A DNA stretch of 62,723 nt, filler included, from Deltaproteobacteria bacterium (GTDB lineage: Bacteria > JAUYMQ01), in NCBI GenBank assembly GCA_030698575.1. It is 15 parts of 15 records of this genome, joined end to end, with 100 filler letters (N's around TTAATTAATTAA, not from the genome) between each part and the next. Parts side by side here need not be neighbours in the genome. Positions count along the whole stretch, not along the records: positions 59,551 to 62,723 come from JAUYMQ010000117.1; 14 more parts are not named here. One strand, given 5' to 3'. This document shows positions 7,806-62,723 of this stretch, in pieces (within the stretch, counting starts at the first letter, position 1; every line of letters begins with the position of its first letter). The position numbers and the translations under genes are program-made. The notes beneath the pieces were generated by a model that searched no databases, was not told the DNA's origin, and was given only the letters and a program-made list of their open reading frames with translations.

Positions 7806-8348
7806 TCAGGCAGTTCCTTCCGTCGTCGCCGGAGCGCCGAAGGAAATTTTAGACTCGGTCTTGGAGAACGATTTTTCGGCGGATGCGGGCGCCTTCGCCA
7901 TGTCCACCGCGCCCTTGAAGTGCGCGCCGTCCATGATGTTGACGCGAGGAGCGATGATGTCCCCCTCGAGGGACCCCACCTCGCGAATTTCCACCCGCTC
8001 GGATCCAATCACGTTCCCGACCACGCTGCCGATGATCTGGATGTTCTTGGCTGCGATCTCCGCCCGGATCTGGGCGCACGAGCCAATCACCAGGTTGTGA
8101 TTTTTAAGCTCGATCTTCCCTTCGACCTTCCCTTCGATCGTGAGATCCTCGTCACCAGTGATTTCACCCTTCACGCACACGGACTTGCCAATATGGATAA
8201 CCCCGCTGCTCATAACTTCCTTTCCTCCGCTCGGGCGGGTTTTCGGGGGGATAATTGACACATTCCGATTCTCGAAGCTGGGAATAGAAGGAGTTTCCTC
8301 CTGCTTCGTGATCGGGTCGGGCCCCTCATCCTTCTTGGTCTTCCACAT
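7806..8348 (-). CDS. Bactofilin (polymer-forming cytoskeletal protein)
   Basis: IGKSVCVKGEITGDEDLTIEGKVEG...IMDGAHFKG; GGAGG RBS before the ATG at 8348. Confidence 0.93.
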   Translation of the reverse strand: MWKTKKDEGPDPITKQEETPSIPSFENRNVSIIPPKTRPSGGKEVMSSGVIHIGKSVCVKGEITGDEDLTIEGKVEGKIELKNHNLVIGSCAQIRAEIAAKNIQIIGSVVGNVIGSERVEIREVGSLEGDIIAPRVNIMDGAHFKGAVDMAKAPASAEKSFSKTESKISFGAPATTEGTA

Positions 8349-8786
8349 GGGTCGCAGGCCTCCGTAGAGCATGCGGTTTGGCCCGGGGCGAGGAGTATTC
8401 GCCCATTTGGACCGTTTCCTGTTGCCGGGGTGGGGGGAAGGAATGCGTCAAGAGAGGCTGTCCGGGCGCTCGGCTCTCACGGGCGTTCTGGACGGCGCCC
8501 CCTCCTGATGGGGCAACGGCTCTCGGGCATCACCAAAGGCATTGCGAAAGGCCGTTGAACACTGTCTTTCTACCAAAGGCTCCGCCGGGCTGTCAAGCAG
8601 CATCATCCCATCGATCGGCGCATCGATTGGCCCCGCTTCGTGGCCGCTGGCCTGGCCACCTCGCAATCTCCCGGAGCGGATGAAGATGCTATAATTCCGC
8701 GCTCGATCCCCCCCTGCCCCACCATGAAACGAGCCCCCGGGGCGCTGCGCCGAACTTTGCCACCCTGCCCAGGAGTCCATCGAACC

Positions 8787-16330: not shown

Positions 16331-16719
16331 CGGCTCCACCAGCTCAATTTTCTCAGGGAACTCCTGCGCGCGGCGTCACCCNNNNNNNNNNNNNNNNNNN
16401 NNNNNNNNNNNNNNNNNNNNNNNNNTTAATTAATTAANNNNNNNNNNNNNNNNNNNNNNNNNNNNNNNNNNNNNNNNNNNNTACCGGCGGAGGAAGACGG
16501 CGCAGAGGAGGCCGGCATCGACAAGCCCCTTGCCTCTCCGGGAGCCGTGCTGAACGTCGAACCGACGCCCGACGTTCCCGAAGACAACGCCATTTACGCC
16601 CCGGGCGCCGGCAAGGGCCGCGCCGGAGAGGCCTACCCGGCCGAGCCGGCGGCGCAGGATCCAGCTCTCGGTCCCGACGCGCCGGGCTCACCGGACCTGC
16701 CTGATCGGGAGGACCCGCA

Positions 16720-56751: not shown

Positions 56752-59205
56752 GTGCCGACCCCCGCCCAACTCGCTGGACTCCCGCTCCTCGATGCCCTCA
56801 ATAACCGCGGCGAAGAGTTCGGAGGGATCGGCGAACCCTGGGAGGCGACCACCTGGGCCGACCAGATCGGTGCTACCAACGAAGGCTTCGGCTACTTTTT
56901 CTGGGCCGCGCTGGAAGGCACTACCGCGGCGGCCCGGCTGGGCGGCACCGAACTGCCCGATGACTGCGCCGTCTCCCTGGAGCTGTTCCCCGAACCAGCG
57001 GGCGAACCCGCCGAAGGCCGCTACTTCGAGGTCTGGCTGCGGATGGAGACGGAATCCCAGCAGGGCTGGCGGCTGCGAGCCTCCCCGCTGGGCGGAGGGC
57101 TGCACAAACTGGTGCTGTCGCTGTGGATCGAAGGCGCAGAACAAAACCCGGGAACCTACGGCCTGACCCTCGAAGAAGTCGCGCTCGAAGAAGACGGAGC
57201 AATCGGCCTCGCCATCGAAGCGGGCGTCGTCTCGGTCTGGGGCCGCGCCGGGGCCGAAGGGGAATGGGAAGAACTCGGCTCACCCGAAGGCGATGCCGAA
57301 CTTGAATCGCTCCCCTCCAAATTCGCCGGGGTCGGCGCGGCTGGGAACGCGAACCCAATCGTCCGCAACTTCTCCGGCGGGGAAGTGGGAGAAGAAGCGC
57401 CGAAAACCGTCGATGCCTCGGCAGCGGGCACCGGGGTAGGGACCGGGGCGGCGACGGCGAAAGTCCTGACACCGGGTGGCGAAGCCTTCGGCGAAACCCT
57501 CAGCTTCACGACAGAGCTAGAACCACGAGTTGCCGTAGTCCAGGAGTACCCGCCGGATCGGCTCGCTTGGTCGGTCAGCCCACCCGGGGGCGCACCGAAC
57601 CGCTGGGCCGCAGACGAGCCAGACCCGGCTAACGTCATTGACGACATCACCCTGACCTCGGAGATGCCCGGCGGCTACAAGGAGGCCACCGGCACACTCG
57701 CCCGCGACCCGCGCCGCGACTACCGCGACCTCGCCGCCTACGGCGACATTTCCATTTACGAGCCCGGCGTCGAGGAGATCTGGAACGGCCGCCTGGAGAA
57801 AGCCTCAGAGGCCAGCGGCGAGCGACAGTCGATCAGGGCGGAGTGCGCCGGCTGGCAGGTGGCGCTGGAGGATGACAAGGCTGTCATCGGGCCTGGGTTC
57901 ATCGACGGGGATCTGAGCAAATGGGGGGAGCCATCCACGGAGCGGCGGTTGCAGTTGATCGAAGCGGGAATCAGGCTGATGGCCTCTACCTCGGTCGGTC
58001 ATTCCTCGAAAGACCTCGAAGCGGCAGCTGCCGCCATCATCAACGACTTCACCAACGTCGAGACGGTGGCTACGGACACCGAGGCGGGAGAGGCGCACTA
58101 CTACGGCGGCGGTGTGGACATCGGCGCCGTCCGCTACGACACCAAAGGCGACCTCGCCGGCGGCGGGGCAAGCGCCGATTGGGAAAGCAACGTCGGCCTC
58201 GGCACGACCGACACCTTCTCCGTCTCCGAAATCGGGTCTGACCATGACGCGAGCGCCGCGACAAATCAGACTGTCGAGGCACCGGGCGCTGGCTACAAGT
58301 TCGCCCGCATCCGGAACCGCCTCGCCGTCGCCTCCGAAGGCGTCGATCTCGCACGAATCTTTAGCTGGCCGAACCTCCGCGTTTTGGGCGACCACGGCCT
58401 CGCTGCGCAGGGCACCTGGCCGAACGTCGGTTTCACCGCGTCGCAGATGTTGGAGTATGCGATCCCGCTCTACGCCACGCCGCTGACGGTTGACTCCGAG
58501 CTGCTGGAAGACGACGGCTTCGTGATCCCCCAGGCTTGGTTCGCAGAGCCGGGGCCGATGAGCGCGGTGGTAGACGAGCTGACCCGCTATGGACTGTTCG
58601 ACTGGTTCGTCTACGGGGGCAAGCTGTTCCAGCTTCGCGCTCCCGGCGTCTACGGGCGGACGTGGAAGGCATACACCGGCCCCTCGGGGTTGGAGGAGGT
58701 CGGCGTCGACGCGCAGCGGCTCTGGCGCTCCATCGTGGTCCGCTGGGCCGACGTGGATGGGCGGACCCTCACCGCTGGCCCCCCGGGGTCCGGCGCCGAC
58801 GTGGAGACAGAAGCACTCGAAGTCACCGACCCCGACCATCCGGCGGTCAAGGCGGGACTGACCCGTACGGACGTGCTCGACATCGGCGGCATCTGCACCG
58901 AAGAACCCGCTATCGCCGCCGGGGAACGGTGGCTAGAAGAAGCCAACGCCCTCAGCCGGGCGGGGCAGGCGTCCCTCTCGGGATATGCGCTGGACGATAA
59001 GAGTGTCTACAGGCCGGTTGCCCAAGTGCGAGCGGGCGACCTGATTTCGTTTGCCGACTCTCCGGACACGTCACCCCGTCGCATTACTGCGGTGTCATAC
59101 AGCCATCGGTCGCGCACGGCGAGTATCACCATCGACGCGCCACCCGGCGGCGTCGCCGCTTTGCTCGAACGCTTCAAAGCAACCCTCTCAACGCTCGGGC
59201 TCTGA
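56752..59205 (+). CDS. Phage minor tail/baseplate-hub-like protein (817 aa)
   Basis: Acidic, beta-rich; PGGY.., IWNGRLE, VRAGDLI, RITAVSYSH..ASITID patterns recalled from siphovirus tail proteins. Confidence 0.6.
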   Translation: MPTPAQLAGLPLLDALNNRGEEFGGIGEPWEATTWADQIGATNEGFGYFFWAALEGTTAAARLGGTELPDDCAVSLELFPEPAGEPAEGRYFEVWLRMETESQQGWRLRASPLGGGLHKLVLSLWIEGAEQNPGTYGLTLEEVALEEDGAIGLAIEAGVVSVWGRAGAEGEWEELGSPEGDAELESLPSKFAGVGAAGNANPIVRNFSGGEVGEEAPKTVDASAAGTGVGTGAATAKVLTPGGEAFGETLSFTTELEPRVAVVQEYPPDRLAWSVSPPGGAPNRWAADEPDPANVIDDITLTSEMPGGYKEATGTLARDPRRDYRDLAAYGDISIYEPGVEEIWNGRLEKASEASGERQSIRAECAGWQVALEDDKAVIGPGFIDGDLSKWGEPSTERRLQLIEAGIRLMASTSVGHSSKDLEAAAAAIINDFTNVETVATDTEAGEAHYYGGGVDIGAVRYDTKGDLAGGGASADWESNVGLGTTDTFSVSEIGSDHDASAATNQTVEAPGAGYKFARIRNRLAVASEGVDLARIFSWPNLRVLGDHGLAAQGTWPNVGFTASQMLEYAIPLYATPLTVDSELLEDDGFVIPQAWFAEPGPMSAVVDELTRYGLFDWFVYGGKLFQLRAPGVYGRTWKAYTGPSGLEEVGVDAQRLWRSIVVRWADVDGRTLTAGPPGSGADVETEALEVTDPDHPAVKAGLTRTDVLDIGGICTEEPAIAAGERWLEEANALSRAGQASLSGYALDDKSVYRPVAQVRAGDLISFADSPDTSPRRITAVSYSHRSRTASITIDAPPGGVAALLERFKATLSTLGL

Positions 59206-59550: not shown

Positions 59551-59835
59551 TTGAACCTTTCCGACAACTGCCCCGACACCCCGAACGCCAATCAGACGGA
59601 CACCGACGCGGACAACCTGGGCGACGCCTGCGACGCCGCGCCCACAAACCCCGACCAGGACGGCGACGGTCTTCTGGACGGCGACGAGGTGCGCACGCAT
59701 CACACCGACCCGGCCAATCCCGACACGGACGGAGACGGGGTGAGTGACGGGGTGGAGGTGGCGCAGGGGTTTGATCCGCTGGACCCGGCCTCGACGCCGC
59801 CGCTCGGGGGCGCCGTGCCGGCCTTGTCGGCGGCG
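59551..59835 (+). repeat. 285-bp direct repeat, copy 1 (copy 2 at 62138-62422)
   Basis: Near-identical and colinear at a constant offset of 2587 nt; encodes LNLSDNCPD...AVPALSAA. Confidence 0.93.
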
Positions 59836-61082
59836 GGCCTCGCGCTCTTCCTGCTCCTCTTTTTCCTGTCGGCAGCCATCGTGCGCAGGCGGCGGCGGGG
59901 GGCGCTGGACCGCGCGGCGCGGCTGTATCTCGCGCTGTTTGTCTGGCTGGCCCTTCAGGTGCAGCTCTCGCGCGAGGCCTTTGCGGCGCTGGGCGAGTAC
60001 ATCCACCCGGATCACCTGGGCAGCACCCGGGTGCTGCGCGACGGCGCGGGGCAGGAAACCCGGCGGCTTACGTACAAGCCCTTCGGCGACACGGAGAGCA
60101 GCACGGGGGCGGGGGAAATCCCTACGAGTACGCCGGCGGGGTCTTCGACGCCGAGACGGGCCTCTACTACCTCGGCGCCCGCTACTACGCCCCGTCGATC
60201 GGCCGCTTCCTGCAGCCTGACGACCTCGGCGATCCTTTTGATCCCCAGTCCCTCAACCGCTACACTTACGCGCGCAACAACCCGGTGATGTTCCTAGACC
60301 CGACGGGGCAGTTTTTTGGGTTCTTCGCGGCGTTCTTTGGTTTCCTCGGCGGGGTCCTGGGAGGCACGGCCAATCTCATCGGTGGTTTTGCCAGCGGCCT
60401 CACGGGCGTCAACTTGAGTTCATTGCCGGTCCTTGGGGGGGTGTTCAACGCCGACAGCGGCGCGTTTTTCCTGGCCCAGCAACTGGGCTCCCTTGCCGCA
60501 ACCGTCGCCAACCAGCGGGGCCCCGGCTTCTCTGTGGGTGACGCGGGGCTCTTGGGCGTCGAGGTGGGCAGCGGCGTCTCGGGGGCTAGGTCGCCGCTGC
60601 TAAGGGATGTCAGCACAACCCTCGAGAGAGGGGGGTTCGGTAACGGCGCGAGCAGGTTCGGGCTGAGTGATGCGGAGAGAAGGCAACGGATCATCGACAA
60701 TGCGTTCGCGGCGGCAGGCGGAGAGGAAGGGGAGATTCCGTTTACCGACGTACTGGATCCGAAGAAACTGGGCGAGGAGCTTTTGAGGAAGATCGGCACG
60801 GCCCGAGGGAATGTGCAGCTCATGGTCACGGGAAGGGGCGAGGGCGAGATCACGGGGACTTTCAAGAATGTCGGCACACCGGTGGATGAGACCATAACGA
60901 AATTCGGGGGGCTTCCGGTCGGACGAATAAAGATCGGAATGGAGGTCACAGGAAACTTCAGAGTCACACGTGAGAGCCTTAGCTTGACGAACATAAGAGG
61001 GTTAGAAGCGAGGGAGTTTCCAGGAAGCTTAAGCCCCGTGACATCTGTAACGGTAACCCCCAAAATGACTGTCTTTGAGTGA
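59551..61082 (+). pseudogene. Rhs repeat protein C-terminal part (TSP3 repeats, CTERM-like TM pair, Rhs core, toxin tip), frameshifted near 60105-60120, 5' truncated
   Basis: First frame gives YIHPDHLGS..YKPFG; the -1 frame continues NPYEYAGGVFDAETGLYYLGARYYAPSIGRFLQPD..SLNRYTYARNNPVMFLDPTG. Confidence 0.9.
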
Positions 61083-61178
61083 GCGGGGTATCTAAGCGCT
61101 ACAATACGGTCAGTCAACCATGCGTTGAGCGGTGGGGGGATGGGTCGTTTGGATAATACAAAACGCAAAGCAGGATCG

Positions 61179-61721
61179 ATGAAGCGTGCGATTCAGACTA
61201 CCTTTCTGGTGGTTGGCATGATGCTTCTCGGTGGGTGCGACTATGGTTCGGAAGTTCCGCTGGGCGCGGTTAATGAAGCGTCCATCGACGAGCAGTTGGT
61301 TGGAATGTGGACCTGTGTACGACGGACTCCGAAAGAGGTGATGAGCGGGGAGACGCTGTTTCTCCAATTCAATGATCGCGAGTACTATCTCCAAATGTCA
61401 GGCGAGACCAGAATTTTGTCCGAGCCCGACAAGGAGCAGTTCTACCTAACTTCATTCAGACGGGCCTATTCGACGGAAATCTTTGGTACCACATTTCTAA
61501 ACGTTCAGAACATCACCGTTTCTGGAAAACGACGCTATGTCTTCTACTCCTACTCCATGCCTTCACCTGACAAATTGATCATTCAATTTGTAGACATGAA
61601 TCTATTCCCCCAGGATCTCTCGACCATCGAGGAAGCGCGCCGAATCGTTCAGGAGAAGATCAACAATCCTGACCTCTATGAAGATGACGCGATGAAGTGC
61701 CAGAGGGTTCAAGAGAATTGA
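61179..61721 (+). CDS. Lipoprotein, candidate immunity protein
   Basis: MKR + hydrophobic stretch + LGGC lipobox; visibly more AT-rich than the flanks; directly follows the Rhs tip. Confidence 0.75.
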   Translation: MKRAIQTTFLVVGMMLLGGCDYGSEVPLGAVNEASIDEQLVGMWTCVRRTPKEVMSGETLFLQFNDREYYLQMSGETRILSEPDKEQFYLTSFRRAYSTEIFGTTFLNVQNITVSGKRRYVFYSYSMPSPDKLIIQFVDMNLFPQDLSTIEEARRIVQEKINNPDLYEDDAMKCQRVQEN

Positions 61722-61792
61722 GCGGCATCCGCATCATCGAAGGATCGTGAATTCCTGAAGCGCTTACAATCTTCCCGAACGGCGGCCAAGCG

Positions 61793-62473
61793 CAGGATCT
61801 CGCCTACAGCTACGACCCGAGCGGCAACATCGCATCGGTGACCGACGCGCTCGACCCGAATGGGTCCCGGAGCTTCACCTACGACGGTCTCGACCGCCTG
61901 ACCGCGGCCACGGGGCCCTCCACGAGCGACACCTACGCCTACAGCCCCTCGGGGAACCTCCTCTCGAAGGAAGGGCAGCCCCAGCTCTACACGATCCCCG
62001 CGCACCCGCACGCCGTCTCGGAGGCCATCGGCCTATCGATGAGCTACGACGCGGCGGGTAACCTGACCGGGGCCGGGGACAACGCCTATAGCTACGACGA
62101 GGAAGGGCGGATGAGCGAGGCGCGCCAGGGGGGCGTGCTGAACCTTTCCGACAACTGCCCCGACGTGACGAACCCCGCCCCGACCGACACCGACGCCGGC
62201 AATCTCGGCGACGCCTGCGACGCCGTGCCCTTCAATCCGGACCAGGACGGCGACGGCTTGCTCGATGGCGACGAGGTGCGCACCTACCACACCGACCCGG
62301 CCAATGCTGACACGGACGGCGACGGGGCGTCGGACGGGGTGGAGGTGGCGCAGGGGTTTGACCCCCTGGACCCGGCCTCGACGCCGCCCCTCGGGGGCGC
62401 CGTGCCGGCCTTGTCGGCGGCGCGGGGCGATCGACCCGGGATGCTCTCGCGCGGCTCCCGCCGTCCAGCGTGA
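61793..62473 (+). pseudogene. Orphan Rhs fragment: YD repeats plus TSP3 repeats, truncated within the CTERM-like motif
   Basis: QDLAYSYDPSGNI, FTYDGLDRL, PHAV, SYDAAGNL, YSYDEEGRM, then DNCPD...AVPALSAA. Confidence 0.85.
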
Positions 62474-62723
62474 CCAGCCGTCCGCTCGAAGGTCCCTTCG
62501 AGGAAGCCTTGTATCTTTTCTCGTTGACGGGAAACCCCGCCCAAGGCACCGCAGTCGAGAATTCCTTCGGAGCAGAACAGGGACAAGCTGGGAATCGCCT
62601 CCAAGTCCGAGGATTGACAGGCCGGGCGCCCGGCAAGAATTCGCCTTGCGCACGTCTTTGAACAACCTTCCGTTTTCCCTTCAATTCCAATCGCTTGCCA
62701 CGCTCTCCCAGCGCAGGTGTCGG

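Follow-up and report, generated by a model that had tools for sequence, protein, structure and literature searches.

How Rhs toxins are displayed, loaded and diversified without a type VI secretion system (T6SS) is an open question, and the available text of a paper on teneurin-like proteins describes delivery without obvious machinery as still to be elucidated (PMC13018210). The locus studied here raises this question in a specific form: what could a C-terminal-type sorting signal and a signal peptide do in the middle of an Rhs protein? The original prediction, made from the sequence alone, placed both elements directly before the Rhs core of a deltaproteobacterial toxin and suggested a mode of delivery distinct from that of T6SS Rhs proteins with PAAR or VgrG.

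The window, i.e., the whole 62,723-nucleotide stretch of DNA that was analysed, consists of short contigs strung together with N spacers, and positions count along its full length. The contig of interest, C151, spans positions 59551-62723 (3173 bp) and carries the Rhs feature in its 5' part. Its host genome comprises 4.1 Mb in 653 contigs at a completeness of 91.6%, and the phylum is represented by three genomes in the genome collection (completeness 72-92%). The sequencing runs listed as containing the stretch are groundwater and cave metagenomes, with no RNA dataset among them. Other parts of the stretch carry what we take to be genes for outer-membrane assembly as well as lipid A-like genes, which suggest a diderm host. 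On the neighbouring contig C150, an 817-aa phage-tail-like open reading frame of differing style (56752-59205), unlinked to the Rhs gene and without Pfam or NCBIfam matches, possibly stems from another organism in the bin.

Architecture of the gene and its paralogs

Frame analysis and domain matches confirmed the predicted order of elements: from the contig edge onwards, thrombospondin type 3 (TSP3) repeats, a VPAL motif with helix 1 and RRRRR, helix 2, AFAA and the core start YIHPDHLG lie in a single frame (Table 1). Helix 1 is hydrophobic (Kyte-Doolittle 19-mer peak 2.39) and helix 2 weaker, i.e., moderately hydrophobic (1.24). The segment around helix 2 shows the pattern of a signal peptide, with a basic n-region, an h-region and small residues at -3/-1, and this pattern is mirrored in the free core cassettes described below. 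The TSP3 block is inserted in a loop behind the last shell strand, which directly precedes it in C570, C233, C121, C613 and L190, the last being a contig of another metagenome. In C151, the contig edge cuts the gene upstream of the block; since the contig begins within the gene, the N-terminus of this first copy lies outside the data. Its own YD-repeat shell is likewise off-contig, and such a shell (PF05593) is present in the second copy, the paralogs and L190. A frameshift near 60110-60122 puts the remainder of the core up to DPTG into another frame. The core is intact in C127 and L190, and the frameshifted copy of C151 probably serves as a silent or orphan module.

Table 1. Features of contig C151, with positions counted along the window
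Feature	Position	Strand	Support
TSP3 (Asp-rich, Ca-binding type) repeats and Pro-rich linker	59551..59814	+	PF18884, 54 bits, E 1e-14
Internal IPTL-CTERM-like sorting signal (VPAL, helix 1, RRRRR)	59815..59898	+	C-terminal tails of the genome, hydropathy
VPAL motif	59815-59826	+	
RRRRR	59884-59898	+	
Predicted internal signal peptide (basic loop, helix 2, A-F-A-A)	59899..59988	+	codon comparison, free cassettes
AFAA	59977-59988	+	
Rhs core (last barrel strands, aspartyl-protease plug)	59989..60308	+	TIGR03696, 74.5 bits
YIHPDHLG (core start)	59998-60021	+	
DPTG (core end)	60297-60308	+	
Putative toxin: variable C-terminal domain of 257 aa with Gly-rich, hydrophobic start	60309..61082	+	GC 0.60
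Lipoprotein with lipobox-like LLGGC, candidate cognate immunity protein	61179..61721	+	GC 0.49, pairing in L190
Degenerate second copy (YD repeats, TSP3 block, VPALSAA, break-off)	61793..62422	+	PF05593, PF18884
YD repeats of second copy	61793-62137	+	PF05593
TSP3 block of second copy	from 62138	+	PF18884

Profile searches bore out the proposed domains in part. The Rhs core was recovered, and the TSP3 repeats were recognized by PF18884, with PF02412 remaining under its cut-off (22 bits). The IPTL-CTERM model (TIGR04174), by contrast, gave no match to the internal copies, and only two C-terminal tails of the genome exceed its cut-off. Scores of the NF033207 midcut-by-XrtH model on internal motifs (19.5 bits for C151, 23.1 and 26.5 bits; cut-off 45) reflect a partial match to positions about 29-94 of 175, i.e., to the N-terminal half of the model only. 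A rule for helix pairs, applied to long Rhs proteins chosen for this feature, picked out the segment preceding the core in 17 of 17 and none of 155 other windows of the same shells; two further long Rhs proteins were skipped in this control as the core pattern failed on them. It also fired on 230 of 2000 composition-keeping shuffles of the C151 segment; the rule alone is therefore weak, and position and recurrence carry the case.

Recurrence begins within the host genome, where six of seven Rhs cores follow a helix pair (C151, C127, C555, C233, C613 and C121; the contigs C127 and C555 begin inside helix 1), the seventh, C178, being an orphan that begins just 5' of the core. The pair occurs in two shell families, SpvB/TcdB-type and DUF6531-like. 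N-termini are signal-peptide-like, both in C121, a complete protein of 1789 aa, and in C567, an N-terminal part with the order signal peptide, SpvB, FG-GAP, TcdB_midN and YD repeats and the one of the two that has SpvB/FG-GAP. The 3' end of C567 is 93% identical to positions 61778-61949, and the contig is not physically joined to the C151 copy. No full-length relative (>2087 aa) of the C233 junction was found among 282 candidates, a weak negative. C121 (L003, 10563-12664) may sit on a mobile island, because it lies upstream of genes that we presume to be recombinase-like.

The internal motif, helix and basic cluster follow the same pattern as C-terminal tails of this genome. The arrangement [IV]P[AT]L-helix-basic is found 14 times, in ten C-terminal tails and at four internal positions, all four in Rhs proteins. 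IPTL tags pair with the exosortase XrtH, as the model names TIGR04174 (IPTL-CTERM) and TIGR04177 (XrtH) imply, and the co-occurring exosortase gene that had been suggested as a check was found on C634 (XrtH, 110.8 bits; cut-off 86). The genome also encodes two signal peptidase I genes and two fragments of GspD, which exceeds its cut-off in both relatives. VgrG and VipB were unmatched in all three genomes of the phylum (72-92% complete), which, together with the signal-peptide-like N-termini, fits the predicted delivery unlike that of T6SS PAAR/VgrG Rhs. The MYXO-CTERM model (TIGR03901) had no match over cut-off in four genomes, and a scan of the host genome for Cys tails returned none. Rce1-like proteases, present in 7 of 7 genomes, are uninformative on myxosortase because they also occur in 11 of 14 controls.

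Contigs of two sequencing runs, X1 and X2, cover the motif, the helices and the core junction without a difference, X1 possibly being the source sample. The core frameshift of C151 recurs in X1 and is absent from L190 and from a relative in run X3. L190 holds a close relative of the C151 gene in one continuous open frame, with YD repeats, last shell strand, TSP3 block, VPAL, both helices, core, homologous tip and homologous lipoprotein in this order. Between C151 and L190, 11 of 30 codons of the loop and helix 2 differ silently and none by replacement, and motif and helix 1 show 10 silent and 3 replacement codons of 27; the helix 2 segment of C127 differs from that of C151 by 5 silent and no replacement codons. 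Judged by these codon comparisons, the helices are under purifying selection.

Downstream of the core, the GC content falls from 0.68-0.71 to that of the variable tip. The tip has no Pfam match and belongs to no known toxin family, and its best Atlas score of 0.83 is a lead without a family. Between C151 and L190, 166 of 257 tip residues are identical, and in both a homologous lipoprotein gene follows 3' of this domain; the lipoprotein falls into unnamed Atlas clusters at 0.95 and would likely shield the producer. Small genes 3' of tips were also seen in C613, C233, Hahella and others, and known tip domains occur elsewhere (PT-TG in C233, Ntox16 in L134).

Homologues, tag classes and two-gene forms

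The order TSP3, IP[AT]L, helix, basic cluster, helix and core is kept in seven independent near-full-length homologues (P0003, P0006, P0007, P0009, P0013, P0014 and P0015), and P0037 keeps the order from TSP3 and IP[AT]L as far as helix 2. Further relatives were collected by a profile search of 1.84 billion representatives, which gave 5585 matches. The best 150 of these comprise 49 helix pairs, 48 signal-peptide-plus-core proteins, 46 with neither and 7 without a recognized core, according to a rule that errs both ways (one false call, P0255; P0126, P0137, P0154 and P0175 missed) and in a set chosen for the feature. The 49 helix pairs among these best 150 divide into 29 with a Cys tag, 8 with IPxL and 12 with other sequences, and by a crude pattern for their ends into 16 with A-x-A, 6 with a lipobox and 27 with neither. 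The last of these figures, like the moderate hydrophobicity of helix 2 in C151, counts against the processing route proposed below.

The tag itself varies. In the two family relatives, the site is taken by a Cys tag (GCG, SCG), and in G001 and G002 the Rhs tag is of the Cys type, yet XrtH-like genes are present. P0162 exceeds the cut-off of GC_trans_RRR/MYXO-CTERM at the tag site, L121 combines a Gly-Gly-type tag, assigned by eye with no model match, with a lipobox, and L131 has TSP3 repeats and an IP-type tag in a genome whose XrtH match is weak (35 bits). By sequence comparison, the tag at the barrel/plug loop is thus interchangeable between IPxL, Cys and Gly classes. The helix pair is uncommon. 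Core matches were obtained in 134 of 401 sampled genomes, with at most five candidates scored per genome, and among the 17 classified of 26 top loci outside the phylum there were one helix pair and three signal-peptide cassettes.

Golvesin_C, CBM6 or PPC domains also occupy the same loop, Golvesin_C and CBM6 even in unsplit Rhs proteins, and since soluble domains are inserted there as well, the loop is likely outward-facing. Four further sequences (P0067, P0109, P0241 and L179) have TSP3 repeats and a dockerin in this loop, followed by an amphipathic stretch that ends in A-x-A (e.g., FPQAEA); lacking a clear helix pair, they possibly represent a third processing type. The core genes P0150, P0158, P0176 and P0187 have a very basic start, one helix and a c-region-like motif, 'REAVAQ', and are classed on these features as a separate type of cassette anchored in the membrane.

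The strongest evidence on mechanism, as read from sequence, comes from bacteria in which shell and core are separate genes. In G069, a 1.9 Mb genome from another family, three long YD proteins lack a core. Two of these shells continue behind the last shell strand with a Cys-type tag, a helix, an Arg run and a stop, and the third ends behind a helix pair; a fourth long protein is fused like that of C151. Short frames account for 59 of 62 core matches in this genome, and all 26 cassettes fetched with an intact 5' end, a count that leaves out one cut cassette and one long protein, begin with a signal peptide directly 5' of the first strand of the core. About 59 signal-peptide-core-tip genes stand in tandem arrays (L065-L068, L077 and L093-L112), mostly without immunity-like genes between them, and a G069 shell has one homologue besides itself. 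Small toxin-antitoxin-like pairs lie between some cassettes of L067. Two unrelated shell loci (L066, about 8330-8385; L077, about 16435-16490) share an inverted repeat in the spacer between shell stop and first cassette, possibly a regulatory RNA hairpin, a pattern unmatched at the other fetched cassettes.

Two-gene forms also occur in cultured bacteria. A single-cassette query yielded 77 named loci, mainly from Proteobacteria, all of which were pattern-screened and 25 read closely. Seven of the 77 are adjacent pairs of a shell and a signal-peptide-core gene, from Hahella sp. CCB-MM4, Microbulbifer sp. 2304DJ12-6, a Granulosicoccaceae, an Oleiphilaceae, Thalassocella blandensis and Pseudoduganella ginsengisoli, which has two such loci and whose shell stops exactly at the last strand. 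The same 77 include five cassettes without a shell seen alongside and two fused helix pairs. In Proteobacteria, the split shells bear no tag at their end but either soluble domains or no addition at all, and four of these genomes have VgrG; anchoring is therefore optional, and the absence of a T6SS is not general. In Oxalobacteraceae, we also observed a three-piece form, in which the shell itself is divided into two genes, each with a signal-peptide-like start (L142 and L153 in Pseudoduganella, L181 in Undibacterium, L162 in Duganella). A core tree of 108 rows and 111 columns was built by a quick method after 10 rows in which the pattern found no core had been dropped. Its starred branches imply no fewer than three changes for the IPxL label and likewise for the split label, and the fused L131 groups with the free cassette P0224 at a support of 98; as the tree is poorly resolved, it leaves the order of fusion and fission unfixed.

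Structure models place the point of division within the Rhs fold. AlphaFold models of C121 (937 aa, pLDDT 79) and C233 (715 aa, pLDDT 82) both show confident strands flanking a low-confidence insert with two helices. The C233 model aligns with YenC2 over 520 residues (2.1 Å, Z 40.4), only about 449 of its residues preceding the insert, and the C121 model with TcdB2-TccC3 over 709 residues (2.9 Å), about 667 preceding it. Because the alignments outrun the residues before the insert, the core falls into its native place in one superposition and is thus modelled as in solved Rhs structures despite the insert, as had been proposed for checking; the models mirror likeness to solved intact Rhs folds and are silent on the assembly of separate chains. 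In Rhs1, the barrel comprises residues 420-1262 and the plug 1263-1357, with cleavage behind Leu1342, according to the accessible part of PMC8636562. With a split about 105 residues N-terminal to DPxG, the cassette would keep the plug together with the final strands of the barrel.

Proposed processing route and competing explanations

We consider it fairly likely, for the chain of steps as a whole, that the protein is exported and processed into two pieces, a shell anchored in the membrane and a core with its toxin, the latter of which would re-join the shell. The N-terminal signal peptide, taken from the paralogs C121 and C567, would route the shell via Sec. Following the rule for CTERM tags, helix 1 would stop transfer and the Arg cluster would remain cytoplasmic. 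At helix 2, export would resume for core and toxin, with cleavage behind A-F-A by signal peptidase I; the two-gene forms are strong backing for this step, and helix 2 is very probably a true signal peptide. XrtH would cleave at VPAL and likely lipid-anchor the shell, the least certain step, for which sortase cleavage at the tag appears moderately likely. As modelled, the core would complete the barrel and plug it, with the payload inside. By analogy with MYXO-CTERM proteins and the Rhs literature, the complex would likely reach the surface via type II secretion, and self-cleavage at DPxG would free the payload. Matching C-terminal tails, XrtH and the natural two-gene splits thus support the predicted sorting tag and internal signal peptide, whereas the predicted release is refined: as the core belongs to the shell wall and its plug, it would not just be set free but would join up with the shell again.

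Since other bacteria encode the two pieces separately, shells are likely loadable with interchangeable toxin cartridges. More tentatively, and with slightly less than even confidence, we suggest a T6SS-independent, two-component Rhs system, in which a lipid-anchored shell at the surface is loaded in trans, outside the cytoplasm, with any one of many separately exported cartridges of plug and toxin, the C151 gene being its polyprotein form, which a sortase and signal peptidase would cut. If so, many of the Rhs core modules that are called orphans would be live genes and independent of recombination, and in G069 a single small genome would have three shells for about 59 payloads.

Several other explanations were weighed against export followed by cleavage and re-joining. 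With the same topology, the sortase might not cut at all, and helix 1 or the whole pair would hold the shell at the inner membrane; signal peptidase might still free the N-terminus of the core, and the shell would be released or extracted later. This would accommodate the 12 of 49 helix pairs, among the best 150 of 5585 matches, that have neither a Cys nor an IPxL motif, as well as one fused protein and one shell of G069 with helices and no evident tag, and uncut MYXO-CTERM proteins can still reach the surface, as the part of PMC11980579 at hand reports. We regard it as unlikely, given that tags, where present, match C-terminal sorting signals of the same genome and that two of the G069 shells finish with a plain Cys-type tag and a stop. 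The same assembly could also carry a non-toxic payload and act as a device for surface recognition or adhesion, as in teneurins or Bd0109. The C151 tip without a toxin family, the few immunity-like genes in the G069 arrays and the adhesion-type domains in the same loop point in this direction; we judge it improbable in view of the low-GC tip with its lipoprotein of still lower GC, a pair conserved in L190, of the small genes behind other tips and of the PT-TG and Ntox16 domains.

That the helices are a device for insertion into target membranes, rather than an export signal on the producer side, has precedents for hydrophobic helices in Rhs proteins in the chaperoned TMDs of T6SS Rhs proteins, e.g., TMD1 of Rhs1 (PMC8636562), and the buried helices of SGS1 (PMC9935623), as far as the available text of both papers goes. 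Those helices, unlike the present ones, precede the shell or follow the cleavage site. Moreover, split forms swap helix 2 for a plain N-terminal signal peptide, the end is sometimes a lipobox, and VgrG was not found in the three genomes of the phylum, so that we give this explanation very little credence. An artefact, i.e., misassembly or a chance read-through joining a CTERM protein to an orphan core, might be suspected from the short, repeat-bearing contig, the frameshift and the truncated copy. It is scarcely credible: the X1 and X2 contigs are identical across the junction (though X1 may be the source sample), L190, which stems from a different metagenome, is in frame and unbroken, the order recurs in seven independent near-full-length homologues, and helix 2 shows purifying selection. 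Because L190 and the paralogs keep the order of TSP3 block, tag and core, misassembly is excluded and the artefact refuted; the block is truly joined to the core.

Relation to described systems and the second copy

The closest published relatives are Sec-exported, TcdB/TcaC-like toxins with SpvB, beta-propeller and RHS domains (Zhang et al. 2012, PMC3482391), which share YD shell, core, variable tip and a downstream immunity candidate as well as the signal peptide, SpvB and FG-GAP seen in C567. In the available text they are described as one chain, and neither a sorting tag nor another signal peptide is mentioned within the shell; 'sortase' occurs 0 times in its 300,000 characters. The MYXO-CTERM/MrtX (PMC11980579, bioRxiv 2023.06.07.544157) and GlyGly-CTERM (PMC3237569) systems have the same tripartite tag, families that swap tag class, lipid anchoring and type II surface display, the last two of which we assume here by analogy; in the passages available, their tags are defined at the extreme C-terminus, whereas here a re-exported second polypeptide would follow. 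T6SS Rhs proteins (Rhs1, RhsA, Tse5, RhsP) and Tc B-C toxins have the same barrel, aspartyl-protease plug and enclosed payload (PMC8636562, in part), the same fold as in our models; unlike the former, the proteins described here come without PAAR or VgrG, and the Tc split lies much earlier, between B and C, compared with about 105 residues 5' of DPxG, next to the barrel/plug boundary. Teneurin-like proteins are also Sec-exported, surface-attached YD shells, but with an N-terminal anchor and one chain, in the available part of PMC13018210. Bdellovibrio Bd0109 is a YD shell without protease or tip, with no separate core cassette described in the text at hand (PMC4267844). Partial texts of PMC8671808 and PMC9935623 provided further background on known systems.

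For a non-Rhs family, mid-chain cleavage by XrtH has already been proposed, as the name of the midcut-by-XrtH model says. We take NF033207 to describe an IPTL-like motif, helix, basic stretch and second helix in mid-protein in genomes with XrtH. Here, the feature lies in an Rhs shell, is replaceable by other tag classes and matches this model partially and under its cut-off. Searches of the open-access literature turned up neither an Rhs protein that carries a tag and another signal peptide internally nor a division of shell and core genes at the barrel/plug loop, although the domain-architecture files of PMC3482391 may list such proteins. The finding pinpoints where these proteins are split in nature, namely at the barrel/plug junction, and adds anchoring tags of three interchangeable kinds and cultured two-gene strains (Hahella, Microbulbifer, Pseudoduganella). 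Whether shells are loaded in trans, whether a sortase cleaves in mid-chain and what role orphan cassettes have can thereby be tested directly. If cleavage occurs as proposed, C-terminal sorting signals would extend to the processing of bacterial polyproteins.

That the module lies inside the Rhs protein, originally deduced from YD repeats upstream of the second TSP3 block, is borne out by the paralogs C121, C613 and C233 and by L190; the second copy itself, a relic, is weak proof of it. Its DNA is 87% identical to that of the first copy, it lacks about 70 shell residues between YD repeats and TSP3 block relative to the paralog C233, and it ends behind VPALSAA. Both of its breaks are bridged by a single 546-base contig of run X3.
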